From NCBI GenBank assembly GCA_963814585.1, contig CAWFDF010000014.1, positions 32,001 to 96,000 of the forward strand: a DNA stretch of 64,000 bases, in the 5' to 3' direction. The translations under genes were made by a program, and so were the position numbers. Position 1 is the first letter of the stretch; every line of letters begins with the position of its first letter. Of this stretch, positions 14,172-30,600 are shown one piece after another. The DNA is from an uncultured delta proteobacterium (GTDB taxonomy: Bacteria > Myxococcota > Myxococcia > Myxococcales > Anaeromyxobacteraceae). Under the pieces are notes generated by a model, which had not been told where the DNA came from, made no database searches, and saw nothing but the letters and a program-made list of their open reading frames with translations.

Positions 14172-17097
14172 CGACGCAGGAGTCCAGGGACCCGGGCTCG
14201 CTCTCCCGCCTCCTCGAGGAGCTGGCGGAGGTCCCCCGCCCCGACGTTCCCGCCGCCTACGCGGCCGGGCTCCGGCCTGGCACCCGGGTCGGCCGCTTCA
14301 TCATCGAGCGCGAGATCGGACGGGGGGCTTCGGCGTGGTCTACGCGGCCCTGGACCCGGAGCTGGGGCGCACCGTGGCGCTGAAGCTGCTCAAGCCCGGC
14401 AGCAGCCCGGCGCGCAAGGGCGGCGAGTGGCTGCGTCGGGAGGCCGAGGCGGTGGCGCGGCTGGGACACGCCAACATCGTCACGCTGCATGACTTCGGCC
14501 GCACGCCCGGCGGCGCCTACCTGGTCTTCGAGCTGCTGCGGGGCGAGACCCTGTCGGCCCGCCTGGGCCGTGGGCCGCTGCCCGTCGAGGAGCTGGTCCA
14601 CGTCGGCCTCTCGGTGGCCAGGGCCCTGGCCCACGCCCACGCCGAGAGCGTCCTTCACCGTGACCTCAAGCCGGCCAACATCTTCCTGTGCTCGAACGGC
14701 ACGGTGAAGGTGCTCGACTTCGGCATCGCCCACCTCTTCGAGAAGGACGGGCCCTCGACGGGCGGGACGCCGGCCTACATGGCGCCGGAGCAGTGGTGGG
14801 AGGAGACGGGAGACGCCCGCAGCGACCTGTTCGCCCTCGGCGTCCTGCTCCACGAGATGCTCACGGGCGCCCTCCCGTTCGGGAAGAGCGGCGTCGGCAA
14901 GTCAGCGCCGAAGCTCGCCGCCACCGTGCCCAGGGATCGGGCCCCCGCCAGGCTCCGGAAGCTCATCGAGGCGCTGACCCAGCTCGACCCGGAGGCGCGT
15001 CCGGCCTCCACCCACCTGGTGGTGCAGGAACTGGAGGCGATCTCGTCGGCGCTGCGGGAGCGACGGCGTCCCTGGCTGCTCGCCGGACTCGCCCTCGCGG
15101 TGCTGGCGGTGGGCGCCATCGGAGTCGTGGCGGGGCTCCGGCGGGAGCCCCCGGCCGGCGAGATGATCACGGCCGCCATCGCCGACGCCGAGAACGCCAC
15201 CGGCGATCCCGATCTCGACCGCCTCGCCGATCTGGTGGCCGTCGCCCTCGGCGAGTCGCGCCGGGTCCGGGTGATCTCGAGGGATCGGCTCCTGGCCGCC
15301 GGCCGCGGCACCAGCGCCGGCGCCGCCCCTCGCGTCGACGTCCGCACCGGCCGGCTCCTCTCCGAGCTGGCCGGGGCGCACGTGCTGCTGGTCCCGGTGG
15401 CGCGTCGGGACGGCGACGCCTTCTCGCTGCAGCTGCGCGGCGAGGCGCCGGATGGTGGGCCCACGCTCTTCACCGCCAGCGCCCGCGCCGGCGGGAAGGA
15501 GGCCATCCCGGCCGCGCTCGATCAGCTCGTCGCCACGGCTCGCCGGGAGCTCCGGGAGCGGACCGACGACCTCAGGCGATCCCCGGCCCAGCTCGCCGCC
15601 ATGACCACCTCCAGCTTGCCGGCCTTCCGGGAGTACGTGGAAGGGGTCGACTGCATGAGCCACCCGGCTCAGGCCGCGGGCCACCTCGGACAGCAGCGCT
15701 GCAAGGACTTCTTCTTGAAGGCCCTGGGTCACGACCCGTCCTTCGCGCTGGCCCACTACCAGCTGGCCTACTTGCTCTCCTCCGGCGGCGCGACGGAGCC
15801 CGAGCTGCGAGCCCACCTGGACGGGGCGCTGCGCTCGCTGCAGCGGCTCTCCCGGCGCGACGCGGCCGTGGTCCGGGCCTGGAAGGCACACCTCGACGGC
15901 CGGGACGACGAGGCGCTGGCCGCGTACGGCGAGGTCCTCTCCGAGCACGCCGACGACCGGCACGTCCTGTTCCTGGCCGGCGATCTCCTCTTCCACCGGA
16001 AGGACTGGGCCGGCGCCACCCCGTACTTCCAGGCGCTGCGCGGGCTCGACCCCGACGCCGAGTGGCCGCTCGACCACCTGGCCACCTGCCTCGCCGTCAC
16101 CGGCCGCACCACGGAGCTTCGCGAGCTGGCGGTGCGCCTGAGCGCTCCGGACGCCACGCCGGGTGGCCGCCGGCTGGCCATCCGGGCGCTGGTCTGGCTC
16201 GGCGATCCGTCCGCCGCCGTGGACCTGGCGCGGCGCCACGTCGACGGCGGGGCCACGGCGGGGGCGCGCCACGACCTGGTCGCCGCCCTCTTCGCCGCGG
16301 GCGACTTCGACGAGGCCGAGCGGGTCACCCGCCAGCTCATCGCCGCCAGCCCGCGCGACCCGGCCAACCGATTGCGGCTCCTCACCATCTACGGCGCCCA
16401 GGGGCGCTTCGCCGAGGCCTGGCTGACGCTTCGGAGCCTGCAGCGGGAGGTCGACGGGCTGCTCCCGGGCGAGCTGGCCCACCTGCGCGCCCTGCTGGCC
16501 GCCGGGGACGGCGAGGTCGAGGTACTCCGGGACGCGGCCATCGCCGCCGTGAAGCTCCAGCCCGATGCGGCGGGCGCTCCGCTGGTCCTGCTGACGCTGC
16601 TGGGAGATCCCGGCCAGGCGCGATCGCTGGCCACCTCGCTCGAGCAGGGCTCGACCGCGGCCCGGGAGGTAGTCGCGCTCGAGGCCTGGCGCCGTGGCGA
16701 GCGCGCCGCGGCGGCGGCCGCGATCGCCCTCCTGGAGCAGCGGGACCCGTGGGCGATGGAGGCGATCTCGCCGGCCTTCCTGCTGGCCGAGGTGACCGCC
16801 GACGGAGGCGAGCCCTCCGAGGTGGTGTCGGCCGTGGCGCGGTTCCACCGGATCTGGCCCGGGGGTCTCTGGCACGGCTGGGCCTGGTCCCGCTCGCTGC
16901 TGCTGGCGGCCCGGGCCGAGGAGCAGCTGGGCCGGGACGTCGAGGCGCGGGCCGCCGCCGATCGCCTGCTCTCCGTCCTGCGGCACGCCGATCCTGGCCT
17001 CCCGCTCCTGGCCGAGGCGCGCGCCCTGCGAAACCGGCTGCGCCGCCGGGAGTCGGGGAACACCACCGTCGCTCCTCCGACGCCGGCGAGGCCGTAG
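14168..17097 (+). CDS. Membrane Ser/Thr protein kinase with extracytoplasmic TPR region, frameshifted in a G run at 14322-14327
   Basis: Adding one G gives IGRGGFGVVY. Then VALK, HRDLKPAN, DFG, GTPAYMAPE, DLFALG, a TM helix and TPR repeats. Confidence 0.9.
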
Positions 17098-17141
17098 TCC
17101 CCCTGATCGGCGCGGCTCCCGGCGCCCACCGCCGTGCCACG

Positions 17142-17167
17142 GGTCACACTCGAGGGGGTGGTTCGTC
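17142..17167 (+). promoter_or_regulatory. Candidate ECF promoter GGTCACA-N13-TTCGTC, copy 1
   Basis: Same bipartite motif with identical spacing recurs at 18927-18952. Lies 70 nt upstream of the small peptide ORF. Confidence 0.6.
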
Positions 17168-17236
17168 CACCTCGCAGCCGGGAGATTCTGACCTCCGGCG
17201 TCAGCCCCTCGAACCGTTCCTGCAAAGGACCACGCC

Positions 17237-17428
17237 ATGGCCACTCGAGACACCCTCCGAATCGCCGACCTCTTCGCCTGGGGGGCCCTGTCGGCCCCGG
17301 GCTGCATCTACCCCGCCACGCAGGAGGCCCCGCACGCCACCCCGGGCAGGTCCGAGCAGGACGACCTCGGCGGCCTCCTCCCCTGGGGCTGCGAGCAGCA
17401 GGAGCAGGAACGGCAGGACCAGGCCTGA
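17237..17428 (+). CDS. Putative RiPP (graspetide) precursor peptide, 63 aa
   Basis: AAGGA RBS. Small ORF directly upstream of an ATP-grasp ligase, with several Thr/Ser and a Glu/Asp/Gln-rich C-terminal half. Confidence 0.6.
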   Translation: MATRDTLRIADLFAWGALSAPGCIYPATQEAPHATPGRSEQDDLGGLLPWGCEQQEQERQDQA

Positions 17429-17501
17429 GCATGGCGACGGCCTCCTCATGGCGGTCTGCGCCGGCCCTGGCCGGACGGCCTCCCAGCGGAGGAGCCCCGC
17501 C

Positions 17502-18515
17502 GTGATCCTCGTCGTCAGCCATCCCGACGACGCCCACGCGGCCCCGGTCATGGGGGCAGTGACGCGAATGGGCATGCGCTGCGTCATGCTCGACCTCGCC
17601 GAGGTGCCACGGCGGGTGCAGCTGGGCTTCTCGGCCGGTCGCGGGGCGACGGGCGCCAGCTTCACGGGGCTGGACGGGGCCCGGATCGACGCCACCCGGT
17701 TCGACGCCGTCTGGTGGCGCCGCCCGCGCCCCTACGTCGTGGACGAGGCCCTCTCGACGTCCTTCGCCGCCTACGCGACCGCGCAGGTCCACACGGCGCT
17801 GTCCGGAATCTGGGGCTCGCTCCGCGCCGCCTGGATGAACGATCCCTGGCTGGACGAGCGGGCCGGGCACAAGCCGGCGCAGCTGGCGGCCGCCGAGGCC
17901 GCCGGGCTGGAGGTGCCGCCCACGCTCGTCAGCTGCGTCCCGGCCGACGCTCGCGCCTTCCTGCAGGAGCAGGGCGAGCAGCGGGTGATCCAGAAGCCGC
18001 TGCGGCCAGATGAGGTGAGCTGGCGGCCCACCCGCTTCGTGACCGAGCGCGACCTGGACCGGCTCGACGACCTGCGGCTCGCCCCCGCCATCCTCCAGGC
18101 CTACGTCCCCGGCACCGACATCCGCGTCACCGCCGCCGGGCACCGGCTCCTCGCGACGGCCATCGACGCCCGGCACACCAGCTCACCGCAGGACTTCCGT
18201 CCCGCCTACGCGCAGGCGCGGGTGTCTCCTTGCGAGTTGCCGGGCGGCGTCGCCGCCGGCGTCCGCGCGCTGCTCCAGGCCCTCGGCCTGCGCTACGCGG
18301 CCCTCGACTTCCGCAGGACCGACGAGGGGCGGTACTACTTCCTGGAGTCCAACCCGGCAGGCCAGTGGCTCTTCCTCGAGGACCGGACCGGCCAGCCCAT
18401 CACGGCCGCGGTCGCCGAGGCGCTGGTCGAGGCGGCGCACGAGGCGCGGAGCGGCGTGGCGGCCAGGCGTCCCGCCTGCCGCGCGGTGGCCGATGTGCGG
18501 AGGCACGCCCGATGA
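17502..18515 (+). CDS. ATP-grasp peptide ligase (MvdC/MvdD/RimK-like)
   Basis: GGAGGAG RBS then GTG. ILVVSHPDDAH, AVWWRRP, WMND...HKPAQLAAA..AGL.VPPTLVS, IQKPL, LQAYVPG.DIRV, LGLRYAALDF, FLESNPAGQWLF. Confidence 0.88.
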   Translation: MILVVSHPDDAHAAPVMGAVTRMGMRCVMLDLAEVPRRVQLGFSAGRGATGASFTGLDGARIDATRFDAVWWRRPRPYVVDEALSTSFAAYATAQVHTALSGIWGSLRAAWMNDPWLDERAGHKPAQLAAAEAAGLEVPPTLVSCVPADARAFLQEQGEQRVIQKPLRPDEVSWRPTRFVTERDLDRLDDLRLAPAILQAYVPGTDIRVTAAGHRLLATAIDARHTSSPQDFRPAYAQARVSPCELPGGVAAGVRALLQALGLRYAALDFRRTDEGRYYFLESNPAGQWLFLEDRTGQPITAAVAEALVEAAHEARSGVAARRPACRAVADVRRHAR

Positions 18516-18844
18516 CGGCGACGCACGCAGCGGAGCCGAGGCGACCTCTCGGCCTGGCGGCGGCCCTGGCCGAGGACGGCGCCGTGATCGTGCTGGTCAT
18601 GGGCTCGGGGCCGGACTCGGACGAGGCCGAGGAGCGCTGCCACCGGCTGGCGCTCGACCCCGGCTTCGAGGCGGTCCGGGTGGTCCGGATTCGCGACCAG
18701 GCCGAGCTGACCGGCCCGCAGCGGGCCTACTGGCTGGCCGGTGATCGTCCCCTGGCGGTCCTCGGGCCGAGGGGACGGGTGGCTCTGCCGCTGGAGCGCC
18801 CCGACGCGGTCGATCTCTTCGTCGCGGTGGCCGCCGTGGCCTGA
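18512..18844 (+). CDS. Hypothetical protein, 110 aa, translationally coupled to the ATP-grasp gene
   Basis: ATGA overlap at 18512-18515 with GGAGG upstream and high-GC3 codon usage. Confidence 0.6.
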   Translation: MTATHAAEPRRPLGLAAALAEDGAVIVLVMGSGPDSDEAEERCHRLALDPGFEAVRVVRIRDQAELTGPQRAYWLAGDRPLAVLGPRGRVALPLERPDAVDLFVAVAAVA

Positions 18845-18926
18845 GAATCAACGTACCGCAAGGACGGCGCTTTCCCCCTTGGGATCGCACCCGGCTGCCC
18901 TGATCGGCGGGGCGCTGCGCCGTCCC

Positions 18927-18952
18927 GGTCACATCCCGTCACGCCATTCGTC
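18927..18952 (+). promoter_or_regulatory. Candidate ECF promoter GGTCACA-N13-TTCGTC, copy 2
   Basis: Matches 17142-17167. Lies 85 nt upstream of the response regulator start. Confidence 0.55.
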
Positions 18953-19036
18953 TGCCTCGGCGACACGGTCTCCACCTGGATTCCGTGAAGGTCGTGTCGT
19001 CTTGCCACCCGGCGCCACCGGCGCCAGAGAGACCGC

Positions 19037-19450
19037 GTGAAGACCATCCTGCTGGTGAACGAGAGCAAGGTGACCCTGGAGCTGATCAAGGTCTACCTCG
19101 TCGGCAAGGACGTGCGGGTGCTGGAGGCCCTCGACGGGATGGAGGCGCTGTCCCTGACCCGCCTGGAGCGGCCAGACCTGATCCTCTGTGACCTGAGGCT
19201 CCCCCGACTCGACGGCCCGGGGCTCTGCCGCGAGCTGAGGGAGGACCCGTCGCTCCGGAGCACGCCGGTCGTCATCCTCTCCAGCGAGAGCGACCAGGAG
19301 ACGCGGCGCACCTGCCGCGAGGCGGGAGCGCGCGGCATCCTCCAGAAGCCCATCGGTCCCCACGAGCTCCACGAGGCCGTCCTGCGCCACGCCGGCATCG
19401 AGGTCGGCCTGACCTACCCCAGGCCGCCCAACCTCGACCGCGCTGGCTGA
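19037..19450 (+). CDS. Single-domain response regulator (CheY-like)
   Basis: Receiver fold: ILLVNES, PDLILCD, PRLDG, VVILSS, LQKP. Confidence 0.88.
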   Translation: MKTILLVNESKVTLELIKVYLVGKDVRVLEALDGMEALSLTRLERPDLILCDLRLPRLDGPGLCRELREDPSLRSTPVVILSSESDQETRRTCREAGARGILQKPIGPHELHEAVLRHAGIEVGLTYPRPPNLDRAG

Positions 19451-19555
19451 GCTGGCGACCGTCGGCGTCGAGGGCTCAGGGCGCTTCCCCTGCACAGGGG
19501 GCGACGCCGCAGCCACCGGCCGAGCCGGTCCACCCGACGATCGCTCACCTGCTAT

Positions 19556-19629
19556 TGGTCCCGGCGGGACTCGAACCCACGGCCTACTGTTTAGGAAACA
19601 GTTGCTCTATCCAGCTGAGCTACGGAACC
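19556..19629 (-). tRNA. tRNA-Arg (anticodon CCT), CCA end not encoded
   Basis: Minus strand GGTTCCGTAGCTCAGCTGGATAGAGCAACTGTTTCCTAAACAGTAGGCCGTGGGTTCGAGTCCCGCCGGGACCA folds as a cloverleaf with ACTGT/ACAGT anticodon stem and TTCGA T-loop. Confidence 0.97.
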
Positions 19630-19857
19630 GGTACGGCCGCCCGCGCCTGCGGGACGGCGGCGGTATACCACCGACATCCAACCACCTCGAAACCTTAGTT
19701 TCGGGTGCTCCCGGTTGACAACTTGCCGCAGCGTTCCGTTAGCATCATCCTGTCCACCTCAGCGCCCGATTCCGCCGTTCACCCTCTTCGCTGCCGGCCC
19801 GGGGTCTCCGATGCAACAACCCACCGCGGAGTGCCCCGGCCTCGGGGGAGGTCGCCG

Positions 19858-21963
19858 ATGAGCCTCCCTCCCATGCTGGGCGAGCTCCACGAGGTTCGCG
19901 GCGCCCTCACGGCAGACCGGCGTGGCCAGGTCCACGCCACCGTCAAGGAATTCCCCGGAGCCGCCGACGAGGCCGCCGCGGTGGCGGTCGCCGTCACCGA
20001 GCTGAGCGCGGCCGGTGCGTCGCTCGGGCTCGACGCGCTGCGAGGACTCGAGGTCAAGGGCCCGAGCCGGACCACGCTCACGGCGGTCCGCGCTGACCTG
20101 TTCCTGCTCGCCGACCTGGATCCGGTCAAGCGGCCCGGCCACGCCCAGGAGACGCTGGAGGCCTGGCAGCGTGGTGAGGTCCTGCCGGCCCCGGGCCCGG
20201 TGCCTGGCCCGTCCGGTCTCACCGGCGTGCTGCCGGCCGCCGAGCCGCCTCCCTTGCCGCCACGCCCCAGCCCCGCCCCGACCGCCTCCGCCACCCGGCT
20301 CATGGCGCTCGATGACCCGTGGGGATCCCTTCGCCGCGCGCTGGTTCGCGGTCACCTCACGCGCGCTGCCGCCTTCCAGCAGGCCATCGTCGACGGCGGG
20401 GCCGGCCCGTCGCCGGCGCCCGGCAGCGAGGCGCTCCCCGCCAAGGCCCTTCAGGAGGCCATGCAGCGCCTGCTCGAGGGCATCGGCAGCATCATGGCCG
20501 GGGACCCCATGGGCGGCGCCCGCTCCCTGTCCGAGCTGGCCAGGGAGACCCAGCCCAACCTCTCCATCCGCTGGCTGGCCCACTACTGGTCGGCCCGGGC
20601 CGCCCTCCAGGGGGGCGGCGCCGAGACCGCCCGGGACCACGTCCGCGAGACCCTGGGCCTCTCGCGCCAGCTCGACGTCGAGGCCCGCGGGGTCAGCCAG
20701 CTGCTGGCGGCCGAGCTGCTGGCTCGCGGCGGCGACCTGACCAAGGCCCTGAGCTGGCTGGCGGAGGCCCGCGGCCGCTTCGAACGGGTGGCCGACCGCT
20801 GGGGGCTCGGCCAGTCCTGGCTGGCCGAGGCGCGCATCCTGGTCGGCCGCGACGAGGCGGCCTGCGTGGCGGCGGCCCAGCGCGCCCGCGACGCCGATCC
20901 GGCATGGGACGAGCCGCAGGTCTTCCTCGCCAGCCGGGCCCTGATGGCCGGGGAACCGGGCAGCGCCAGGGCCGCGCTCGGCGACCTCCGCTCGCCGGCC
21001 GCCGATCGCCTTCGCACGGTGCTGGAGGCGGTGGCGCAGCGGCAGATCTCGCTCCCCGACGCCGGCGAGTTCCTCCGCGTCCACCACGCGCCGCCGTCCG
21101 GCCAGAACCTCCGCTCGCTGGAGCGGATCGCCAACGCCTCCCCGCGCTTCCTCCAGGCGCGCGAGGCCCTGGCCTGGCTGCTGGTCAAGCTGGGCCGCTA
21201 CGCCGCCGCGCGCGAGGTCTTCGTGTGGCTGCTCGAGCAGCCGCTCGAACCCGCCGACCAGGCCATGGTGACGCTCGGGCTGAGCTGCACGGCCACCGCG
21301 CTCCAGGCCGCCGGCACCGCGTCGCCGCCCGGCGCCGCCGCTGGTCCCGGCAAGGGCACCGTCACGGGCCGCCCGCCCGGCACGCCACCAGCCCTGGGCG
21401 ACTCGGCCCTGCTGCCCCAGGGGACCCGCGCCACCGTCTCCGGCCTCGACGCCATGTTCTCGGGGAGGCTCAGCGTCTTCTCGCCCGCCGACCTCGTCGA
21501 GTTCCTCCGCACCGCCGGACGCAGCGGGCTGCTGGTGTGCAGCTCCCAGGGCGGCGTGGGAGCGTTCCGCTTCCGCCAGGGCAGGATCACCGGGGCCGCC
21601 GCACCGTCGACGCCGAGCGTCGGCGAGCTGCTGGTCCGGAGCGGACGGCTCACCGCCCAGGGCCTGGCCTCGGCCGGTCCTGCCCGCGAAGGCTCGCTGA
21701 TCGACGCCGAGCTGGTCTTCCGGCTGGTCCAGCTCCGGCTGGTCGAGGCCGCCGCCGTGCGCGAGGCCAGCCGCCAGCAGATCGAGCAGGCGCTGCGCGA
21801 GCTGATCGACTGGACCGACGGCGAGTTCGCCTTCACGCGGGAAGACGATGAGCCGCAGGCCGGCGAGGCCACCATCGAGCTGGATGCGCAGCAGCTCCTG
21901 CTCGAGATCTTCCGCGAGCGGGACGAGTCCACCCGTGGTCCCGTCCCCAGCTCCCGAACCTGA
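19858..21963 (+). CDS. Multidomain protein: roadblock-like N-terminus, TPR-like middle, C-terminal DUF4388 (PATAN-like) domain
   Basis: C-terminus FSGRLSVFSPADLVEFLRTAGRSGLL...FRQGRITGA...LIDWTDGEFAF...QLLLE is typical of DUF4388. N-terminus has a roadblock-like pattern. GGGGAGG RBS. Confidence 0.78.
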   Translation: MSLPPMLGELHEVRGALTADRRGQVHATVKEFPGAADEAAAVAVAVTELSAAGASLGLDALRGLEVKGPSRTTLTAVRADLFLLADLDPVKRPGHAQETLEAWQRGEVLPAPGPVPGPSGLTGVLPAAEPPPLPPRPSPAPTASATRLMALDDPWGSLRRALVRGHLTRAAAFQQAIVDGGAGPSPAPGSEALPAKALQEAMQRLLEGIGSIMAGDPMGGARSLSELARETQPNLSIRWLAHYWSARAALQGGGAETARDHVRETLGLSRQLDVEARGVSQLLAAELLARGGDLTKALSWLAEARGRFERVADRWGLGQSWLAEARILVGRDEAACVAAAQRARDADPAWDEPQVFLASRALMAGEPGSARAALGDLRSPAADRLRTVLEAVAQRQISLPDAGEFLRVHHAPPSGQNLRSLERIANASPRFLQAREALAWLLVKLGRYAAAREVFVWLLEQPLEPADQAMVTLGLSCTATALQAAGTASPPGAAAGPGKGTVTGRPPGTPPALGDSALLPQGTRATVSGLDAMFSGRLSVFSPADLVEFLRTAGRSGLLVCSSQGGVGAFRFRQGRITGAAAPSTPSVGELLVRSGRLTAQGLASAGPAREGSLIDAELVFRLVQLRLVEAAAVREASRQQIEQALRELIDWTDGEFAFTREDDEPQAGEATIELDAQQLLLEIFRERDESTRGPVPSSRT

Positions 21964-21971
21964 CCGCGACC

Positions 21972-23876
21972 ATGCCCTCCGCGCCAGCCTCGATCGACCC
22001 CAAGGGCCAGGGCCCCGTGGATCTCTCCAGGCTGGCCGGGTTCAAGCTGGGCAACTACCGGCTCGAGCGAATCCTCGGGCGTGGCCGGATGGGCGTGGTC
22101 TACCTGGCGCAGGACGAGGCCCTGCTGCGGCCCACCGCCATCAAGGTGCTGGCCTGGGCGAGCGGCGACGCCAGCGGCCAGGATCCGGTCCAGTGGTTCC
22201 TCGGCGAGGCCCGGCTGGTGGCGCGCATCAACGATCCGCGGGTGGTGCAGATCTACGGCGCGGCCAGGCAGGGGGACTACTGCTACATCGCCATGGAGTA
22301 CGTGGCGGGCCAGTCCACCGAGGCGCTCATCGCCACCGGGGGACGCCTCTCGCCGGAGGCGGCCACCGACATCCTGGTGCAGTCCTCCTCGGCCCTCCAC
22401 GCCGCGCACGTCGCCGGCGTCGTCCATCGCGACGTCAAGCCGGGAAATCTGCTGATCGGACCGGGCGGCATGACCAAGCTGGGCGACTTCGGCATGGCCC
22501 ACGGCTCGGCCGGCGTCCCGGTGGGCAACGCCTCCGTGCGCGCCGGCACGCCGTTCTACACGGCGCCGGAGATCTGGCGCGGCGCCGTGGCCAGCCCGGC
22601 CTCCGACATCTACGCGCTGGGCGCGACCTACTTCCACCTGCTCACCGGGCGGCCACCCTTCCTCGGCGCCGACCTGGACGAGGTCGAGCGCGCCCACCTC
22701 GGGGCGCCGGTCCCCGATCCTCGCGATCTGGTGCCCGGGCTCCCGCCCTCCTGCTCGACGCTGGTGGCGCGGGCGCTGGCCAAGAACCCGGCCGATCGCC
22801 AGCCCTCGGCGCAGGTGCTGATGTGGGAGGGCCGCCGAGCGCTCCAGGAGCTGGCGGCCGCCTCCCCCGCCACGCCCCCGGCCAGGAGCCTCGCGCCCAC
22901 GCCGGCGCGCCCGCCGAGGCCACCTGTCCCCCGACCCGCGCCGCCACCACTGGCCGGACGCTTCCAGTTCATCCGGGCGCCCTTCGACCTCTTCGACCCG
23001 CTCCTCGCCCCCTTCCAGGCCGCGCCGCTCGACGGAGTCCGGCGGCGGCTCCAGGCCCTGGTCGAGGACCCTCCCACGACGCAGGTGGCGCTCACCGGCC
23101 CGCCCGGGAGCGGCCGGACGACGCTGCTCAGGCAGCTGGCCGCCGACGTCGCGATCTCGGGGGCCCGCCTGGTCCTCTCGGTGGACGACGCGAGCCGGGA
23201 CGATGGCCGGTCGGCGCTGCAGCGGCTCTGCCGCGCCGCGGGGGTCCCCGACGAGGGCGTGACACGCCTCGACGGGTTGCTCCACCGGCTCGGCGAGGAG
23301 CGCGGCCGCCCGCTGCCGCTCCTCCTCGTGGACGGGCTCGACGGGAGGTCCGAGCTCGATCCCGACCTGCTGGCCCTGGCCGCGGCGGCGGCCTGGTCGA
23401 GGACCTTCAAGCTGGTGGTGGCGGGGCCGGCGGGGCTGGGCCGACGGCTCGCCTCCGCCACCGACCCGGGCGAGCGGGCCCCGTGGGTCGAGCTCCCGGT
23501 CCCCGCACTCGACGCCGTCCAGGTGGCTCACTACGTCCGCAGCTGGCTCCGCGCCAGCCGGGCCCCGGACGCCGCACCCATCCACCTCTCGGCCGACGCC
23601 CTCCTGCTGGCCGCCCACCGGTCCGGGGGGCGGCCGGGGACCGTCGACGTGATCGGCTGGAACATGCTGGCGCTGGCCGCGGCCGCCGGACGACCCACCC
23701 TCACCTCGTGGCATGCCTGGGCCGCCGCCGCCGGCACCCCGTGGCCCGAGGCCCGCCCACCGCCGGGCCTGGTCGCCATGCCCCCTGGGTGGCCGACCAC
23801 CGAGGCCCGTGCGGTCATCGACGAGTGCCGCCGGGGGGCCGGGCTGCCCCCCTGGCCGGAGGTCGGGAGCACATGA
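21972..23876 (+). CDS. Cytoplasmic Ser/Thr kinase fused to an ExeA/AAA_22-like ATPase domain
   Basis: LGRGRMGVVY, AIK, HRDVKPGN, DFG, GTPFYTAPE. After a Pro-rich linker: GPPGSGRTT, LLLVDG, HRSGGRP. Confidence 0.85.
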   Translation: MPSAPASIDPKGQGPVDLSRLAGFKLGNYRLERILGRGRMGVVYLAQDEALLRPTAIKVLAWASGDASGQDPVQWFLGEARLVARINDPRVVQIYGAARQGDYCYIAMEYVAGQSTEALIATGGRLSPEAATDILVQSSSALHAAHVAGVVHRDVKPGNLLIGPGGMTKLGDFGMAHGSAGVPVGNASVRAGTPFYTAPEIWRGAVASPASDIYALGATYFHLLTGRPPFLGADLDEVERAHLGAPVPDPRDLVPGLPPSCSTLVARALAKNPADRQPSAQVLMWEGRRALQELAAASPATPPARSLAPTPARPPRPPVPRPAPPPLAGRFQFIRAPFDLFDPLLAPFQAAPLDGVRRRLQALVEDPPTTQVALTGPPGSGRTTLLRQLAADVAISGARLVLSVDDASRDDGRSALQRLCRAAGVPDEGVTRLDGLLHRLGEERGRPLPLLLVDGLDGRSELDPDLLALAAAAAWSRTFKLVVAGPAGLGRRLASATDPGERAPWVELPVPALDAVQVAHYVRSWLRASRAPDAAPIHLSADALLLAAHRSGGRPGTVDVIGWNMLALAAAAGRPTLTSWHAWAAAAGTPWPEARPPPGLVAMPPGWPTTEARAVIDECRRGAGLPPWPEVGST

Positions 23877-24196
23877 ACGATCTGGAGACCGTGGCCCGCC
23901 TGCCCGGCGTCAGCGTCGCCGTGCTCGGCGACCTCGAGGGGACCTTCCTGGGGGCGTTCGGCACCGCCGACGGGGAGACCATCGCCGCCGAGATGGGGTT
24001 CGTCGGCAGTGCCATGCGGGGAGCGGGTGAGCTGCTCGGCCTCGGTGCCCTCGCCTCCCTCTCGTTCTCCGGCCGGACCAGCGCCTGCCTGCTGGTGGTT
24101 CGCCCCCGGGCGCTCATCACGGCGCTGGTCGCGCCGCCCCAGTCGCTCGGCCCGGTCGAGCGCGCGGTGGACGCCGCGCTCCAGGGGCCGACCTGA
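23873..24196 (+). CDS. Roadblock/LC7 (MglB-like) domain protein
   Basis: 107 aa, LPGVSVAVLGDLEG...ETIAAE...GELLGLGAL pattern. ATGA overlap with the kinase. Confidence 0.7.
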   Translation: MNDLETVARLPGVSVAVLGDLEGTFLGAFGTADGETIAAEMGFVGSAMRGAGELLGLGALASLSFSGRTSACLLVVRPRALITALVAPPQSLGPVERAVDAALQGPT

Positions 24197-24197
24197 C

Positions 24198-24393
24198 ATG
24201 GACACCATCCTCCTGGGCCGGCTCGACCTGGCGGGCATCCACGCTGCGCTGCGACGGGGCCGGCCGGCTGCTGGGCCACCGGGGGCGATCGGTCCACCTC
24301 CGGGCGTTCGCCCACGAACTGGCGACCAGGGTCGAGGACGGCGATGATCGCCGGGCCTTCCTGGTCGCGCCGGAGCGGACCGGCGGCACGTAG
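24198..24393 (+). pseudogene. Small frameshifted or degenerate ORF with a helical motif seen at the C-terminus of roadblock/DUF4388-associated proteins
   Basis: ATG 1 nt after the roadblock stop. A different frame reads ...LRAFAHELATRVEDGDDRRAFL...GGT-stop at 24393. Confidence 0.35.
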
Positions 24394-24414
24394 TCCCACG
24401 GAGCGGAGATCCAC

Positions 24415-25332
24415 ATGTCCCTGGTCACCACGATCCAAAGCAGGCTCAGTCGCAAGATCTCGCTGAAGCTGGCCGGCCTCCTGTTCGTGCTCACGTCGGG
24501 CGCGGCCGGGACCATCCTCGTCACCCGCACCCAGCAGATGGAGGAGATGACGCTGGAGAAGGCGCGGCTGGCCGCGGCGGCCGGAGCGAGGCAGTTCGGG
24601 GACACCTTCGACAACGCCATCGACTCCAGCCTGCTGACGGTCAACGACGTCTTCGACCGGTCCTACGTCGAGATCAAGGGCTGGGACTGGGGCGACAAGC
24701 CCAAGTTCCACACCCGCTTCGACGCCTTCTGCGACCGCGCCGTGCTGGTCTTCCAGGACAGGTTCCTGGACGGCGGTGACTTCATCTACGCGGTGGGCGT
24801 CGACGTCAACGGCTACCTGCCGACCCACAACACCAGGTTCCAGCAGCCGCTCACCGGCGTCCCGGAGAAGGACCTGGCCGGCAACCGGACCAAGCGCGTC
24901 TTCAACGATCCGGTCGGCCTGGCCGCCGCCAGGAACACCGAGCCGGGCTTCCTCCAGGACTACGCCCGCGACACCGGCGAGCGGATGTGGGACGTCTCCA
25001 GCCCCATCTTCGTGAAGGGGAAGCACTGGGGTGGCTTCCGCGTCGGCGTCTCGATGGAGCGGATCGCCGCCAGGCAGCGGGCGCTGTTCATCACGCTGAC
25101 CGGCATCTTCGCCGCCTTCGCCCTCATCACCATCGTCACCATGTACGTGGTGGTGGAGCGGGCCATGAGGCCGGTGTCGGCCCTGACCGCGGCCGCCGGC
25201 GCCATCAGCATGGGCGAGGGCCTCGACACCCCCATCAAGTCCCAGTCGAGCGACGAGATCGGCCAGCTCACCAAGGCGGTGGAGCGGCTGCGCGTCAGCA
25301 TGAAGGCGGCCATGAGCCGGCTCGGCGGGTAG
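24415..25332 (+). CDS. Membrane receptor: TM, periplasmic Cache-like sensor, TM, HAMP, with no output domain
   Basis: Two TM helices. Sensor motif VDVNGYLPTHN...NRTKRVFND...YARDTGE...PIFVKGKHWG. HAMP RPVSALT...DEIGQLTKAVERL, then stop. Confidence 0.85.
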   Translation: MSLVTTIQSRLSRKISLKLAGLLFVLTSGAAGTILVTRTQQMEEMTLEKARLAAAAGARQFGDTFDNAIDSSLLTVNDVFDRSYVEIKGWDWGDKPKFHTRFDAFCDRAVLVFQDRFLDGGDFIYAVGVDVNGYLPTHNTRFQQPLTGVPEKDLAGNRTKRVFNDPVGLAAARNTEPGFLQDYARDTGERMWDVSSPIFVKGKHWGGFRVGVSMERIAARQRALFITLTGIFAAFALITIVTMYVVVERAMRPVSALTAAAGAISMGEGLDTPIKSQSSDEIGQLTKAVERLRVSMKAAMSRLGG

Positions 25333-25345
25333 AGGAGACACCACC

Positions 25346-25978
25346 ATGACCCGGACCACCACGCTGCTCGCGTCGCTCCTCCTTGCCGCCGCCACCCTCT
25401 CCCCGGCCCTGGGCCGGGCGCAGCCCAGGCCGACCGCCGCCCAGCTGGAGCTGCTCAACACCCAGGAGCGGGAGATGCTCGCGGTCGCCCAGGACTTCGC
25501 TCGCCGGGTCTCCGAGACCATGGAGGCCTGGCTGGCCGCCAAGGAGGTGAGCGAGGAGCGGCTCTTCTCCTTCCTCTACTACCCGGTCGCCAAGACCGAC
25601 CCGCCCAAGTTCACCACCGACTGGGACCGGCTCTCCGATCGGGACGTCCAGGGGATCGAGGAGGCGGCGATGAGCCGCGCCCAGGGACTGGTCTACGCCG
25701 TGCTGGTGGACCGGCACGGCTACCTTCCGACCCACAACCTCCGCTACTCTCAGCCCCTCACCGGGAACCTGGCCAACGATCTCGTCAACAACCGGACCAA
25801 GCGCATCTTCAACGACAGGACCGGCCTGGCGGCGGCCAGGAGCGCGGCCCCATTCCTCGTCCAGCGCTACCAGCGCGACACCGGCGAGACCATGGTGGAC
25901 CTCTCGACGCCGGTCTTCGTGCGCGGGGTGCACTGGGGTGCGGTCCGGCTCGGCTTCCGGGCCATCGACGCGCGCTGA
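25346..25978 (+). CDS. Secreted stand-alone paralog of the same sensor domain
   Basis: Signal peptide, then VDRHGYLPTHN...NRTKRIFND...YQRDTGE...PVFVRGVHWG. AGGAG RBS. Confidence 0.82.
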   Translation: MTRTTTLLASLLLAAATLSPALGRAQPRPTAAQLELLNTQEREMLAVAQDFARRVSETMEAWLAAKEVSEERLFSFLYYPVAKTDPPKFTTDWDRLSDRDVQGIEEAAMSRAQGLVYAVLVDRHGYLPTHNLRYSQPLTGNLANDLVNNRTKRIFNDRTGLAAARSAAPFLVQRYQRDTGETMVDLSTPVFVRGVHWGAVRLGFRAIDAR

Positions 25979-26039
25979 GGGGCCGGCGCGGCCTGGGCGG
26001 GCCCTTCCGCCCGGATCGCGGAGCAGCGCCCCGGGACCC

Positions 26040-27479
26040 CTACCTCGGCTTGCCGATGGCGGGAGGCTTCCAGGAGCCATCCAGGGCCGAGGGGGGCCGC
26101 CCTCTCGGCCCGTGGAGCCGCAGCACCAGGGAATACCGGCCCGCCGGCACCTGCAACCAGTTGGACTCCCGCCCCTTGGGCGGGTCCACCTGCAGCAGCA
26201 GCTCGAGCGAGCCGTCGCGGTGGTACTGGAACCTGCCCCGCGAGCTGAGCGGGTTCCGCCCGCCCTTGCCGAGGAACGGGACCCCGCGCTCGTCGTACAC
26301 GCTGAGCGTCCAGAGCGCCAGGGCCGGTGGGCCCTTGCCCCGGTTGAAGCGCAGGGCGCGGCGGACGCGGCCCTCCAGCGGCTTCCCGCCACCGTCCACC
26401 TCGGCCGTCAGCACCACGCCGTCGAGCGCGCGGTCGGCGCCGGCGGCGACCTCGGCGGCGCGCCCGAGGTAGCCGGGGGCGGGAGCCCCCACGCCCGCGG
26501 CGGCCCACCCGTTGACCGGCGCCGCCGGGCTCGCCGCCGACGTGATCCTCTCGTGCGCCAGCCTGGGCACGCCGGCCATGGCCTTGATGACCGAGGCGTC
26601 CAGGCCGCTGGGGTCGTAGTCCTTCCCGGGCACCAGGCCGATCCTGGCCAGCGTCGGCAGGATGGTGGCGTCGTCGGATGCCGGCGGATTGACCTTGAGC
26701 AGCGTGGCCAGGAGCTTGAAGTAGACCACGGCGTCGAGCGCCTGGAGCTGCTCCCGGATCGGCGTGGTCACGTCCAGCGAGGCGTCGGGGCGCCCCGGCG
26801 GAGCCACGTACTTCTTCGGATTGGCGCCGAGCGGCAGCAGCGTGAGCCGATCGACCCACGCCTGCGCCTCGCCCCGGTCCACGCTCCCGCCCGCCGCCAG
26901 CACTCGCCCGCCGATCCGGACCAGCGCCGTGGGCGACCTCACCTCGCGGACGCCGGCCGGGAGCTTCCCGCTCCAGCCCGGTCCGGTCACGGCGATCCGG
27001 CCGGGCCGCCCCTTCGCCCCCGGGCCGCCGGCCATGTGGAGGAGCTGGTTCCAGGCCGACCGGAAGGTCACGACGTGGTAGCGCCCCCGGGTGTCCGGGA
27101 GCGAGAGCACCCACGGCTCGGCGCCGACGTCCACCCAGGCCTCCAGCGAGAGGGTGTCGAGGGATCCTCGCGGCGCCCGCTCCGCCGGCGTGGGCGGCCC
27201 CCGGGGCCGGGCCAGCTGGTCCATGGGAGCCTGGGCCCCCGCCGGCCTGTCCACGTTGGTGGCCACCCGGCGCGCCAGCTCGGCGCCCACCAGCGGGTAG
27301 CCATAGACGTAGGCCTCGACGGCCGCGTCCAGCGCCTCCCTCTCGCGCTCCGCCTCCCTGGCGACGGCCGCGGGCGGCCGCTGGCCAGCCTGCGGGGGCG
27401 GGGGCGGCGGCTTGCAGGCCGCCAGGGCCAGGGCCACCGCCATGGACAGCCACCTCAGGCCGCGAGTGGATCGACCCAT
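26040..27479 (-). CDS. DUF1254/DUF1214 lipoprotein
   Basis: Lipobox LAAC, AYVYGYPLV, DTLS..AWVD...EPWVLSLPD..GRY, WTLSVYD, DGSLEL, NWLQVP..YSLVLRL. Confidence 0.85.
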   Translation of the reverse strand: MGRSTRGLRWLSMAVALALAACKPPPPPPQAGQRPPAAVAREAEREREALDAAVEAYVYGYPLVGAELARRVATNVDRPAGAQAPMDQLARPRGPPTPAERAPRGSLDTLSLEAWVDVGAEPWVLSLPDTRGRYHVVTFRSAWNQLLHMAGGPGAKGRPGRIAVTGPGWSGKLPAGVREVRSPTALVRIGGRVLAAGGSVDRGEAQAWVDRLTLLPLGANPKKYVAPPGRPDASLDVTTPIREQLQALDAVVYFKLLATLLKVNPPASDDATILPTLARIGLVPGKDYDPSGLDASVIKAMAGVPRLAHERITSAASPAAPVNGWAAAGVGAPAPGYLGRAAEVAAGADRALDGVVLTAEVDGGGKPLEGRVRRALRFNRGKGPPALALWTLSVYDERGVPFLGKGGRNPLSSRGRFQYHRDGSLELLLQVDPPKGRESNWLQVPAGRYSLVLRLHGPRGRPPSALDGSWKPPAIGKPR

Positions 27480-27682
27480 GAGCCCATGACCTCCTCGAGA
27501 CCCGGCGGCCTCCCGGGTCCATGGTCTCGAGCCTCGTGGCCTCGAGCTTCCGGGGCGCGAGCTTACCGGACGCGGCCCGCCGCACCAGTGGATTTCGTGC
27601 TGGGGCGCGCTCCAACGCGCGTCGACAACGTCCGGTCCACGTGGTTAGGTCGAGGCTCCGGCTCCACGGCGAGGTCCTGCGA

Positions 27683-30600
27683 ATGGTCGAGGCCAATCCC
27701 CAGTCCCCGTACGACAGCCTGGCGGCGCGGTGGTCGGCGGCCACCGCGCCCGATCGTCTCCTCGAGGACGCGACCTGCGAGGCCCTGGGATCGATCACCC
27801 CGGGCGATCTGGCCGGGATCGAGCCGGTGGTCGCCGCGCTGGTCCAGCGACTCGACGCCGAGGCCACCCGGAGCGGGGCGCGCCGCGCCCTGTTCGCGCT
27901 CTTCGACGGCGCCCGGCGCCGCGGCTTCACCGAGGCGCTGACCCAGCCGCAGATCGACCCGTGGCTCGGGCTCCTGCTCCCGCTCGTCCGGCGCATCGAC
28001 TTCACGGTCGGCGAGCTGCTCCGCTCGCGCGAGGAGACCGACCCCAGGGTGGTGGCCATCCGCACCCTCGGCCAGGACGCCACGGAGCTGACCGTGGCCG
28101 AGGTGGCGCGCCGCACCCGGTCCATCGCCCGCGGCCTGCTGGCCATCCTCGGCGACGAGCCCGAGACCCGCGTCGCGTTGCTCTCCGAGAACACGCTCGA
28201 GGCCGCGCTCTGCGACCTCGCGTGCCTCACCAACGGCTTCGTCGACTTCCCGCTCCCCGCCAACGCGGTGGCCGAGCAGGTCGTCTACATGCTGAGGCAC
28301 TCCAGGGCCCAGGTGCTGCTGGCCTCCGACGAGGAGCAGGTCGGCAAGGTCCTGCCCTCGCTGGCCGGCCTGCCGGACCTCAAGGCGGTGGTGGTCTTCG
28401 ATCCCACCTGCGCCAGCCGGAACGGGCTGCTGTCGTTCGAGCAGATGGTCGGCCAGGGGGCGGGCTTCGACGAGCCGCTGCGGGCGGCGCGGGCGGCGCG
28501 GGTCAAGGCCACCGACATGGCGACGGCCATGTACACCTCGGGCACCACCGGGAAGCCCAAGGCCATCGTCTTCACGCACGAGAACCTGGTGTCGAAGCGC
28601 CTTTGCCGCGGCTTCGCGCTGCCGGAGGTGGGAGAGGGCGACACCTTCCTCTGTTACCTGCCGCTCTACCACACGTTCGGCCGGTGGCTGGAGCTCATGG
28701 GGACGGTCTGGTGGGGCGCCACCTACACGTTCGCCCGCTCCACGGCGCAGTCCTCGCTGCTGGAGGACTTCCGCAGCGTCAAGCCGACCGTCTTCATCTC
28801 GGTGCCCAAGAAGTGGATCGAGCTGCAGGACGCGGCGGCGTGGGAAGCGGCCGGCGAGGACGAGGAGGAGACCGCCGGCCACCTGCGGGTCATCACCGGA
28901 ACCCGCCTGCGCTACGGCCTCTCGGCCGCCGGCTACCTCGACCCAGGCATCTTCAAGAACTTCCACCAGGCCGGGGTCGAGCTCTGCTCCGGCTATGGCA
29001 TGACCGAGGCCACCGGCGGCATCACCATGACCCCGCCCGGGGGCTACGTCGACGGCTCTATCGGCGTGCCGCTCCCCGGCATCGAGTGCCGCCGCGCCGA
29101 CGACGGTGAGCTGCTGATCCGCGGCATCTACGTCTCTCCCGGGTACCTCGACGGCGGGCCGGAGGAGGCCGGCGCCCACGATGCGGACGGCTGGTTCCAC
29201 ACCGGCGACCTGGTGAGCGTCGACGACGGCCACTTCCGGATCGTCGGGCGCAAGAAGGAGATCTACAAGAACCGCGCCGGGCAGACCATCGCCCCGGCGC
29301 GCGTCGAGAACCTCTTCCGCGACTTCGAGGCCATCGGCCAGGCCTTCCTGGTCGGCGACCACCGCGACTACAACACGCTGCTGGTCTGGCCCAACTACGA
29401 GCAGCAGCCGCAGCTGCGCGAGCTCTCGCCAGACCAGCTCCGGGATCTCATCTCCTCGCTGGTGGCCAGCGCCAACCGGTTCCTGGCCCCCTTCGAGCGC
29501 GTGGTGACGTTCCAGGTGCTCCCCCGGGCCCTCGACGTCGAGCACGGCGAGCTGACCCACAAGCACACCTTCAAGCGCGAGGTGGTCGGGGAGTCCTGGA
29601 AGGACCTGATCGACAAGATGTACGAGCAGAAGCACCTGGCGCTGGCGATCGACGGGTGGTTCCTGCGCATCCCCAACTGGGTGCTGCGCGAGATCGGGGC
29701 CCTCCGGCACGAGGTCTCCCTCCAGGAAGGCGTGCTCCGCGCCGGTGACCGGGCGCTGGCGGTCGGCCCCGACGTGGCGGCCCTCGGCTCCTTCCTGCTC
29801 GGCGATCTCGCCTACGCCTCGGAAGGGACGGTCATCGATCTCGGCGTCGTGCTCTCCCGGCCGGCCCTCTGGCTCGGCAACGAGGCGATGCGCCGCTTCC
29901 TCGGCGACGAGGCCTTCCTGGCCCTGGCCGCCAAGCGTCGCAAGGGAGGAGCCGAGTACCGGATCGACCCCCGGAACTGGCACGGCCCGCCTCCGGAGCG
30001 GCAGCCGGGCCTGCTCGACCAGGTGGACCGGACCGAGGTCAGCCTCCTCTCCATCCACGCCGCCGCCGAGCTGCTCCGCGCCGAGCGGCCGGAGGCGCGG
30101 CGCGCCATCGGCCACCTGCAGCGCGGGCTGACCGCGGCCTCCCCGGAGCAGGCCCGCCTGAGCCGCGCCTTGCTCCGCCGCGCCGCCGACGCCCCCGACG
30201 AGGACGTCCGCCGCCGCGCCTTCCGCGTCCTGCTGCCCAACGAGGACCCGGCCCTGACCCTGGAGACCTTGAGGGCCTTCCTCGACCGGATGGAGGCGAT
30301 GGCGCTGCGCGACGAGGACCTCGCCGACCTCGGTGAGCGCGGCCTCTCCGACGCCCAGGTCCTGCGCCTCCTCGAGCACCTGGCCTCCGACCGGGCCAAC
30401 GGGCCGCTCACCGACGCCTCCGACCAGAAGCTGCTGATCGGCGTGATGCGGCTCCTCACCGCCACCGCCATCGCCCACCCCGGCTACTTCGCCCGGGTGC
30501 GCGTCCCGCTGGCCCGGCTGACCCTCCACGAGGACGCCAGCATCTCCGCCCGCGCCGGCGAGGAGCTGGACCGGCTTCGCCGTGGCTTCTCCAACTGGAT

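Follow-up and report, generated by a model that had tools for sequence, protein, structure and literature searches.

The window, the whole stretch of 64,000 nucleotides of DNA that was analysed, carries a signalling cassette of Anaeromyxobacter-type bacteria that is both real and conserved. In relatives, the cassette is composed of six genes in a fixed order: a roadblock-TPR-DUF4388 gene (A), a Ser/Thr kinase-AAA gene (B), a roadblock gene (C), a roadblock-STAC gene (X), a HAMP-ended receptor gene (D), and a secreted sensor twin gene (E). A membrane sensor without an enzyme part of its own probably relays its signal to a protein kinase by way of a small docking protein. The fuller reading, in which the Af1503/STAC module underlies a transmembrane signalling cassette with kinase phosphorylation as its output, is evenly balanced in our judgement. 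The anatomy, the conserved order, the effector-less receptor, the intact kinase motifs, the dead ATPase motifs, and the loss of X in this genome are established directly.

Af1503 serves as a standard model of how HAMP domains signal, although no effector can be recognised in it. Papers of 2017 and 2026, in their accessible portions, still call the role of STAC unknown or unclear. The cassette provides a defined partner pair in bacteria that are in culture: its conserved surface motifs can be mutated, and its kinase gives an output that can be measured. Orphan roadblock proteins also gain a context from it, as does an uncharacterised, highly conserved sensor family.

Gene order and integrity of the cassette

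Table 1. Features of the cassette, in positions of the window.
Gene	Coordinates	Strand	Length	Features
A	19858..21963	+	701 aa	Roadblock (about 1-105), Pro-rich linker, TPR-like region, DUF4388/PATAN (535-691)
B	21972..23876	+	634 aa	Hanks-type Ser/Thr kinase (intact) followed by a fused pseudo-ATPase, a degenerate AAA domain of ExeA/GspA type
C	23873..24196	+	107 aa	Stand-alone roadblock/LC7 protein
X	24198..24395	+	198 nt	Pseudogene remnant; ORF intact at the same position in relatives
D	24415..25332	+	305 aa	TM1 (about 17-37), periplasmic PDC/sCache-like sensor, TM2 (about 222-251), terminal HAMP, no effector
E	25346..25978	+	210 aa	Secreted soluble paralogue of the sensor domain of D

The initial annotation had described five or six tightly packed, co-oriented genes and had taken their co-occurrence elsewhere as a check. 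The neighbourhood check agreed on co-occurrence, since 28 of 44 non-redundant loci show the A-B-C-X-D-E order (contig ends cut 9 of the remaining 16), and this recurrence means that the order is not due to chance. A long match to A was found in 12 relatives, all within the 14 that have D. The genes flanking the cassette vary between genera. The cassette is carried by the cultured Anaeromyxobacter soli SG29, A. terrae SG22, and A. oryzae Red232. The five intact genes stood as listed, but the sixth, X, had been missed, and the packing is tight only if its remnant is counted as a gene: the spacing is then 8, -4, 1, 19, and 13 nt, whereas intact C and intact D are 218 nt apart. As the annotation had also stated, histidine kinase, MCP signalling, cyclase, and DNA-binding domains are absent from the Pfam matches of the five intact genes. 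No MglA-like GTPase was found in any fetched Myxococcota cassette locus by motif scan or by tblastn with the MglA of this genome. A scan of 19400-26200 for promoters and terminators found none, as chance would likewise give.

X is the gene that sets this genome apart. In relatives it encodes about 250 aa, composed of a roadblock-like domain, a Ser/Gly-rich linker, and a C-terminal STAC domain. It lies intact directly upstream of D in all 37 loci that hold both C and D, and its ORF is intact at the position of the remnant in 12 of 12 relatives examined. Compared with three congeners, the remnant lacks 5 nt after 24248 and 546-573 nt after 24296. A 49-aa ORF at 24198-24347 was considered as a separate gene; it has no family match and is the frameshifted start of the remnant. 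One contig from run X4 spans the deletion junction (151 nt, depth 2.1, 9 differences, no gap), and no other piece among those listed does so; given this contig, an assembly artefact is less likely as the source of the deletion. The gene deleted in this genome is the likely receptor-docking one. An intact X paralogue of 470 aa is encoded elsewhere in the genome (C4:445861-447273, minus strand) and may compensate for the loss. As a natural adaptor deletion, this genome is a useful comparison and a poor model of the intact system.

The roadblock-like domain of X has weak Pfam matches in 9 of 12 members (best E 0.0055), and the profile match between X and C is 43%. Searching the full X profile against the PDB gave nothing useful. 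C itself matches Robl_LC7 at E 0.0027, under the Pfam cut-off, and its profile finds roadblock structures at E 7e-4, with LAMTOR3 also matched. The N-terminal profile of A matches gene C with 99.1% probability and the roadblock structures 7f8f/7f8m at E 0.009-0.02; for both A and C, the best PDB matches of the roadblocks are not labelled MglB. The remainder of A is recognised by Pfam as DUF4388 (E 5.5e-21) and weak TPR.

B matches Pkinase at E 1.8e-42 and AAA_22 at E 6.9e-7, the latter above the Pfam cut-off. The VAIK lysine, helix C glutamate, HRD, DFG, and APE motifs are present in 26 of 27 long orthologue rows, the single exception being a split ORF. The second domain is ExeA-like: in a relative it matches TIGR03015 over 247 aa (E 1e-6), and elsewhere in this genome its profile best matches ExeA-like ATPases (E 7e-20). 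The Walker A lysine is found in 0 of 27 aligned sequences, with the loop often eroded further, and the Walker B glutamate is absent after the aspartate position, leaving no DE pair. The AAA domain is partly deleted in two orthologues and absent in a third (G020), where the kinase continues in frame into roadblock C. By these motifs the "ATPase" of B looks catalytically dead.

A HAMP-ended receptor and its probable STAC partner

D has a Pfam HAMP match (E 2e-7) and two transmembrane segments by hydropathy. In a search confined to 162-538 aa, 118 of 119 homologues were 304-307 aa long, and all 14 aligned sequences have the C-terminus seen in D. A six-frame genome search found no longer D-type orthologue. 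A truncated MCP or histidine kinase is therefore rejected, because the orthologues also end after HAMP, and the output-less, HAMP-only receptor of the initial annotation is upheld. D-type sensors also occur in true MCPs (L058, L015, L016), which are placed outside the D group in the tree. The D model has a pLDDT of 79, and its sensor resembles PDC folds of the WalK/TlpB/CitA type (Z up to 12.1). No significant Pfam family was found for the D/E sensor, and ESM Atlas returned unnamed clusters and MCP-like PDC leads.

E is 41% identical to the sensor of D over 174 aa. Its orthologues have N-termini that, judged by eye, are signal-peptide-like; a lipobox-like Cys match occurs in 1 of 51 rows. The E sensors separate from the D sensors in the tree, which is a quick version where L016 is a long branch and the rows L031, L043, and L052, labelled 'other', are actually E genes. 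A 529-aa protein (P0006) was considered as a natural D-E fusion; it looks like a frameshifted join of the two.

Against PDB sequences, the HAMP of D retrieves Af1503 constructs as its first 12 rows (best E 1e-7), a relative ranking, as the PDB holds few HAMPs. With 4cq4 it shares 34% identity, at an rmsd of 1.6 over 65 residues. The C-terminal domain of X is modelled as four helices with a pLDDT of 91, and Pfam has no model that covers it. Af1502 is its top natural match in sequence searches (E 0.041 and 0.016) and its top Foldseek match (prob 0.89, TM 0.60/0.66, E 0.98). By VIA, Af1502 ranks second (Z 6.5, rmsd 2.9, 68 of 68 aligned), where a Z below 8 can reflect a common helical arrangement. 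The G and P of an LGPx(x)A motif are invariant at the helix 1-2 turn in all 46 rows, and the GP motif of X aligns with the same motif of Af1502. These scores are individually modest, and the best matches identify the C-terminus of X as a putative STAC domain. Since the HAMP best matches Af1503 and the C-terminus of X best matches Af1502/STAC, the cassette appears to be a bacterial form of the effector-less receptor module known from Af1503 and STAC.

The genomic context of STAC is consistent with this identity. In the accessible part of PMC4834066, Af1503-like receptors are described as often coupled to STAC proteins. Of the nine HAMP matches in this genome, two are HAMP-ended receptors, and both adjoin a STAC gene or remnant. 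Among 20 Desulfobacterota STAC loci, found by sequence alone, 16 have a HAMP-ended receptor beside the STAC gene and 4 do not, one of these lying at a contig end. The STAC proteins beside HAMP-ended receptors include fusions to a kinase (L083, L084), a cyclase-like domain (L071, L085), and DUF4388.

A complex of the HAMP dimer and STAC, predicted from the G001 sequences, scored an ipSAE of 0.35, compared with 0.02 for the best of three controls; contacts agreed to at least 91%, and the partner pLDDT was at least 75. The ipSAE mark is reached by 116 of 157 solved pairs versus 2 of 215 mismatched pairs. Only 18 of the 157 solved pairs reach it with a score of 0.60 or under, but both mismatches do. 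The HAMP-STAC score was graded weak, in a range more often wrong than right unless the pairing is likely beforehand, and thus gives weak predicted support for binding of the HAMP of D to the STAC of X.

Proposed signalling route and alternatives

In the proposed mechanism, the PDC-type sensor of a dimeric D would bind a small ligand, with the secreted twin E serving as a co-receptor or ligand buffer. The change would travel via TM2 to the terminal HAMP, which, by its conserved R-x-R-x-S end helix, would bind or release the STAC of X. The roadblock-like domain of X would pair with the roadblocks of C and A, moving the TPR/PATAN scaffold. The scaffold would then position or switch the kinase B, whose phosphorylation would be the enzymatic output, while the ExeA-like domain of B may be a structural or oligomerisation module. 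In this genome, the HAMP-STAC step would be lost or rerouted via the 470-aa paralogue. Several observations count against this explanation. In CbrA, STAC docks on the SLC5 transporter and is packed under it in cryo-EM, as reported in the accessible part of PMC13488458, and growth did not differ obviously when STAC was deleted from CbrA or CrbS, according to the part available of PMC5715377. One locus (L047) has D-E with no partner within 8 kb and no STAC match in its genome, another (L055) has no STAC gene beside D-E, and the receptor-less STAC loci and the open frames that persist despite the loss of X count likewise.

The real output could instead be an MglA-type GTPase encoded elsewhere, with the three roadblocks and PATAN regulating MglA in trans (polarity or type IV pili) and the kinase as a modulator. 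MglA homologues are present in 7 of the 20 Desulfobacterota STAC loci, where three adjoin pilM-like genes (one Pfam-confirmed), and two MglA-like genes lie elsewhere in this genome. The available text of PMC4316618 reports that MglB and PATAN genes co-occur with MglA and that 328 of 749 MglB homologues are orphans, and that of 10.1101/2021.06.11.447907 links PATAN proteins to pilus motors. We consider this output unlikely: an MglA homologue is absent from every fetched Myxococcota cassette locus, the GTPase-bearing loci mostly have a DUF4388-containing STAC protein and other Cache sensors rather than X and D/E, and the closest roadblock structures do not carry the MglB label. Another possibility follows the CbrA structure, with STAC docking on a membrane transporter and not on HAMP, the receptor acting on that transporter or another membrane partner, and the genes being only co-regulated. 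The available text of PMC4834066 describes neighbourhoods of Af1503-like receptors rich in transport genes, and at one locus (L081) a roadblock-STAC gene lies next to an ammonium transporter, as does a kinase whose AAA-like match is weak; no HAMP-ended receptor was found there. This arrangement is quite improbable for a six-gene cassette that has no transporter gene inside it and flanks that differ between genera; STAC abuts the receptor gene in most loci, and the predicted HAMP-STAC complex passed the mark, if weakly.

The cassette may also be decaying here after two deletions destroyed X and no longer signal, a possibility that fits whichever mechanism the intact form uses. In A and C, the roadblock domains have 16 amino-acid versus 8 silent lineage-specific changes, against 7 versus 13 in two congeners (Fisher p 0.07). 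Decay is nonetheless somewhat unlikely, as the remaining five frames are open and full length, there is no overall excess of amino-acid changes (A+B+C p 0.23; D+E p 0.82), and the X paralogue is intact; relaxed selection on the remaining genes was tested and was not significant. The initial annotation had favoured a kinase/P-loop switch with roadblock partners, taken here as an NTP-driven switch in B under roadblock control. Roadblocks are known NTPase regulators, according to the accessible part of PMC4316618, and the AAA_22 match lies above the Pfam cut-off. The idea did not survive the alignment: because the Walker A lysine is missing in 27 of 27 sequences, B has no P-loop switch, and with the Walker B glutamate gone and the domain partly or wholly lost in some lineages, such regulation is very improbable. 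Signalling through protein contacts, which the annotation had also proposed, is still the best reading of the cassette.

Relation to known signalling systems

The resemblance to actinobacterial conservons (CvnA-D) drawn by the initial annotation holds as an analogy only. Both combine a membrane input with a roadblock protein and no response regulator, as conservons are described in the accessible literature, but three of the four defining conservon proteins are missing. CvnB has counterparts in C and the N-terminus of A. CvnA, a membrane histidine kinase with a dimerisation and ATPase module, has none, D having HAMP only; no CvnC Pfam family was found on any cassette protein at E 0.1; and the small Ras-like GTPase CvnD was not found in the cassette loci by motif scan and tblastn. 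The cassette instead has three roadblock domains, PATAN, and a Hanks kinase. Roadblock and PATAN (DUF4388) domains are shared with the MglA/MglB(/MglC) polarity module and its PATAN regulators, and related Desulfobacterota STAC loci include MglA-like GTPases; the cassette differs in having no GTPase near its roadblocks and in having a dedicated receptor and kinase. The second domain of B is homologous to ExeA/GspA-type AAA ATPases (TIGR03015-like) along the P-loop and lid regions, but it has lost the Walker A lysine and Walker B glutamate, is fused to a kinase, and is dispensable in some lineages.

In the SLC5/STAC histidine kinases CbrA and CrbS, STAC is likewise a membrane-proximal coupling module, as far as the available texts describe it, whereas the cassette has no SLC5 domain or histidine kinase and carries STAC on a separate soluble protein. 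The closer kind is the Af1503/Af1502 (STAC) pair of Archaeoglobus fulgidus (PDB 2L7H, 4CQ4, 5A1Q). In both systems HAMP is the only cytoplasmic part of the receptor, the Af1503 HAMP is the best PDB match of D, and an adjacent gene encodes a four-helix STAC domain with a GPxA motif. In contrast to that pair, the cassette is bacterial, its STAC is fused to a roadblock-like domain and does not stand alone, its receptor has a PDC-type sensor and a secreted twin, and it couples to roadblock, TPR, PATAN, and a Ser/Thr kinase with no transporter inside. A broader and tentative proposal, which we hold at a little under even confidence, is that STAC is a general cytoplasmic docking partner of Af1503-type HAMP-only receptors. 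Together they would form a two-part, modular system whose sensors (PDC, Cache, Tll0287-like) and outputs (Ser/Thr kinase, cyclase-like, roadblock/PATAN/MglA) can be exchanged; this cassette would be the version with a kinase output, and it would have a pseudo-ATPase scaffold and a periplasmic co-receptor. If true, STAC would be the missing effector of Af1503, the model receptor behind much HAMP work.

A recurrent cassette and its setting

The window's genes A (roadblock-TPR-DUF4388), B (Ser/Thr kinase-AAA), C (roadblock), D (HAMP-ended receptor) and E (secreted sensor twin of D) belong, with a sixth gene X, to a cassette that is real and conserved; the initial annotation had read them as a cluster. 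A scan of GTDB genomes gave 51 loci. The non-redundant set holds 44 loci (39 from that scan and 5 from other searches: 1, 3 and 1), and DUF4388, kinase, C, intact X, D and E occur together in 28 of them. The other 16 comprise 9 cut at contig ends, 1 without a kinase match, 1 with D and E only, and 5 of a Desulfobacterota type, where E lies ahead of D and a STAC gene is found upstream in 4 of 5, on a roadblock-like or helix-turn-helix-like protein. Because kin are not independent, these figures are counts without tests. Among 40 relatives, full-length D is present in 13, all within the window's family (13/24), and a 14th has a piece of D at a contig edge; outside the family (16 genomes), D matches are at domain level only. 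Long A matches occur in at least 12 of the 40, every one among the 14 with D, a floor because the A search had a stricter first look.

The closest named relatives of the window are Anaeromyxobacteraceae and Myxococcales assemblies (87-88% identity). Within the family, cassette presence is patchy (14/24). The tRNA-Arg(CCT) gene also flanks the cassette in four relatives (G001, G012, G005, G009), and tRNA-Ser genes do so in a fifth (G023); these flanks and the patchy presence hint that the cassette may insert at tRNA sites. GC content is not unusual. The flanking genes are syntenic in some congeners only.

Features of the cassette region and of related loci (window coordinates unless a locus is named)
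Feature	Position	Strand	Content
Gene A	19858-21963	+	intact; Pfam: DUF4388, weak TPR
Gene B	21972-23876	+	intact; Pfam: kinase, AAA_22
Gene C	23873-24196	+	intact; Pfam: weak Roadblock/LC7
Gene D	24415-25332	+	intact; Pfam: HAMP
Gene E	25346-25978	+	intact; no significant Pfam match
tRNA-Arg(CCT)	19556-19629	-	directly upstream of gene A, opposite strand
Flank	14335-19450	+	Ser/Thr kinase with TPR repeats; single-domain response regulator (19037-19450)
Flank	26040-27479	-	DUF1254/DUF1214 protein
1605-aa protein	27521-32338	+	AMP-binding (acyl-CoA synthetase-like) domain, long middle without assignment, C-terminal GNAT-like domain; 87-89% identity in four congeners
Lone X paralogue	L070:7862-9274 (window genome, contig C4)	-	470 aa: roadblock-like domain, STAC, ~215 aa
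Second effector-less receptor unit	L071:6310-10090 (window genome, contig C8)	-	Ser/Thr kinase; HAMP-ended receptor with Tll0287-like sensor; cyclase-like protein carrying two STAC domains
Candidate third unit	L072:5194-7707 (window genome, contig C3)	-	DUF4388-roadblock, roadblock-like protein, 395-aa dCache_3 membrane protein
Kinase-roadblock fusion	L012:7566-8897 (relative G020)	+	AAA domain absent; kinase runs in frame into roadblock C
Transporter locus	L081:8204-14116		roadblock-STAC, ammonium transporter, DUF4388-roadblock, kinase with weak AAA-like match

Components of the cassette

Each of the 12 relatives examined has C and D ~770-900 nt apart, enclosing X, an ORF of ~240-270 aa, which is intact in 37/37 loci holding C and D. 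In the window, both ends of X can be recognised by alignment in the intervening DNA; compared with three congeners, this remnant has lost 5 nt after 24248 and 546-573 nt after 24296. The tight packing first described for the window arises because the remnant is counted in, giving gaps of 8, -4, 1, 19 and 13 nt; between the intact C and D it fails (218 nt). One low-depth contig from sequencing run X4 reads through the junction gap-free, differing at 9 of 142 nt, and therefore the deletion is probably biological, a conclusion drawn from that single contig. A full-length X paralogue stands alone elsewhere in the genome, and its 215-aa extension has no Pfam or NCBIfam match. The same extended form occurs in 2 of 20 relatives searched (G001 and G007), both of which retain cassette X as well. 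Apart from any question of mechanism, it is somewhat doubtful that the window genome's cassette copy is decaying. Lineage-specific changes in the roadblocks give a non-significant hint only (p 0.07).

The C-terminal domain of X has an invariant GP at the turn between helices 1 and 2. Its best natural sequence match is Af1502, the STAC protein of Archaeoglobus fulgidus (E 0.041; top match of a deeper profile, 0.016), which is also the top Foldseek match (probability 0.89, TM 0.60/0.66, E 0.98) and comes second in VIA (Z 6.5, rmsd 2.9, 68/68), level with dynein and MoxR lid domains. The individual scores are modest; motif, fold and gene position concur on STAC. The sequence of the Ser/Gly-rich linker in X varies, yet an invariant G-x-x-W motif precedes STAC (alignment A2), possibly a kinase target or docking motif. 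The N-terminus of A is homologous to C (99.1%), and both weakly match roadblock structures; that of X appears roadblock-like, a weaker call.

D has two hydrophobic segments (~17-37 and ~222-251), and E is 41% identical to its sensor over 174 aa. A single PDC/sCache-like fold makes up the sensor, WalK being its best match (Z 12.1, rmsd 2.9, 144 aligned); 31 of its positions are conserved in 90% or more of 53 domains. D ends at the same position in 14/14 aligned family members, and 118 of the 119 best other homologues, within a search range of 162-538 aa, are 304-307 aa long and carry R-L-R-x-S close to their C-terminus. The receptor is not a fragment, and the truncated MCP or kinase that the initial annotation had allowed for is not what relatives encode. 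True chemoreceptors also carry the D-type sensor. In a quick tree, D sensors from Myxococcota, an Acidobacteriota assembly and Desulfobacterota form one side (SH-aLRT 95), and E sensors, with three MCP domains, another (SH-aLRT 97) of similar branching, so that D and E look like an old retained pair. The ~250-aa proteins encoded at Spirochaetota loci L059-L069 have a D-type sensor flanked by two hydrophobic segments and lack HAMP and any other cytoplasmic domain.

Kinase motifs of B are retained in 26 of 27 long rows of its alignment. The AAA domain of B is a descendant of ExeA-like ATPases; the ExeA/GspA name for the ATPases on contigs C8 and C4 is our own motif reading, supported by a TIGR03015 match.

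STAC-receptor units beyond the cassette

STAC matches occur in 19/121 Myxococcota genomes and 24/151 Desulfobacterota genomes, from a profile that favours the receptor-linked subfamily because it was built from receptor-adjacent domains. Among 20 loci fetched from those 24 genomes, a HAMP-ended receptor in the same orientation accompanies STAC in 16, mostly as the next gene, with an end helix usually reading R-M-Q-x-S, not R-L-R-x-S. There, STAC mostly sits on a DUF4388 protein, and Cache domains of other types act as sensors. MglA-like GTPases were seen in L114-L116, L118, L123, L124 and L131, several with roadblock and DUF4388 genes and three beside pilM-like genes. Myxococcota also have STAC in fusions with kinases and with cyclase-like domains, beside Tll0287-type HAMP-ended receptors.

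The window genome has two HAMP-ended receptors among nine HAMP matches; both adjoin STAC, and the second pair lies on C8. The genes of L072, whose dCache_3 protein has no output domain found, are possibly a third, more diverged unit. Against a general STAC-receptor pairing stand six STAC loci without a terminal HAMP under the pairing rule: in two of them (L082, L083) the rule overlooked a receptor, and none was seen in the other four, the lone X paralogue among them.

Mechanism and relation to known systems

In the favoured reading, to which we give about an even chance and of which the anatomy is the observed part, ligand would bind at D, with E aiding or buffering; the HAMP of D would control docking of X's STAC; X would pair through its roadblock with C and A; and kinase B would be controlled as the outcome. 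A HAMP-STAC complex predicted from G001 sequences and our own alignments scored ipSAE 0.35 (best control 0.02; contacts agreeing in at least 91%, partner pLDDT at least 75). This is rated weak: the mark is reached by 116/157 solved and 2/215 mismatched pairs, with 18 of the 157 solved pairs and both mismatches at or below 0.60.

The P-loop switch initially proposed for B is very improbable, since the Walker A lysine is present in 0/27 B sequences aligned there (4 of 31 rows have no aligned Walker A), no Walker B DE pair appears in the alignment, and two orthologues lack part of the domain and G020 all of it. Regulation of an MglA in trans is unlikely: a homologue is present in 7 of the 20 related Desulfobacterota STAC loci, but in no Myxococcota cassette locus. 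Docking of STAC on a transporter, as in CbrA, has its parallel in L081, which has no HAMP-ended receptor and possibly joins the cassette's cytoplasmic components to a transporter as input; for the cassette itself, we consider such docking distinctly unlikely.

The literature searched (including PMC4834066, PMC10731501, PMC4316618, PMC5715377, 10.1101/2021.06.11.447907, PMC13488458 and PMC11109136) gave no account of this cassette or of HAMP and STAC in a complex; bacterial neighbourhoods may be covered by Korycinski et al. 2015 and its supplement, outside that search. The present analysis adds that B carries a pseudo-ATPase, that X is naturally deleted here while a paralogue lies at another site, that kinase and roadblock are fused in G020, and that a complex prediction passes weakly. 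According to PMC4834066, Af1503-like receptors have HAMP as their sole cytosolic part and frequently go together with short STAC proteins that bear an LGPx(x)A motif; HAMP conformations are the topic of PMC10731501. All best PDB matches of the D profile are Af1503 HAMP constructs (E 1e-7). The resemblance to actinobacterial conservons noted at first gives way to this pairing, D's HAMP with Af1503 and X's C-terminal domain with Af1502: the cassette is a variant of the Af1503/STAC kind, neither a conservon nor a new class.
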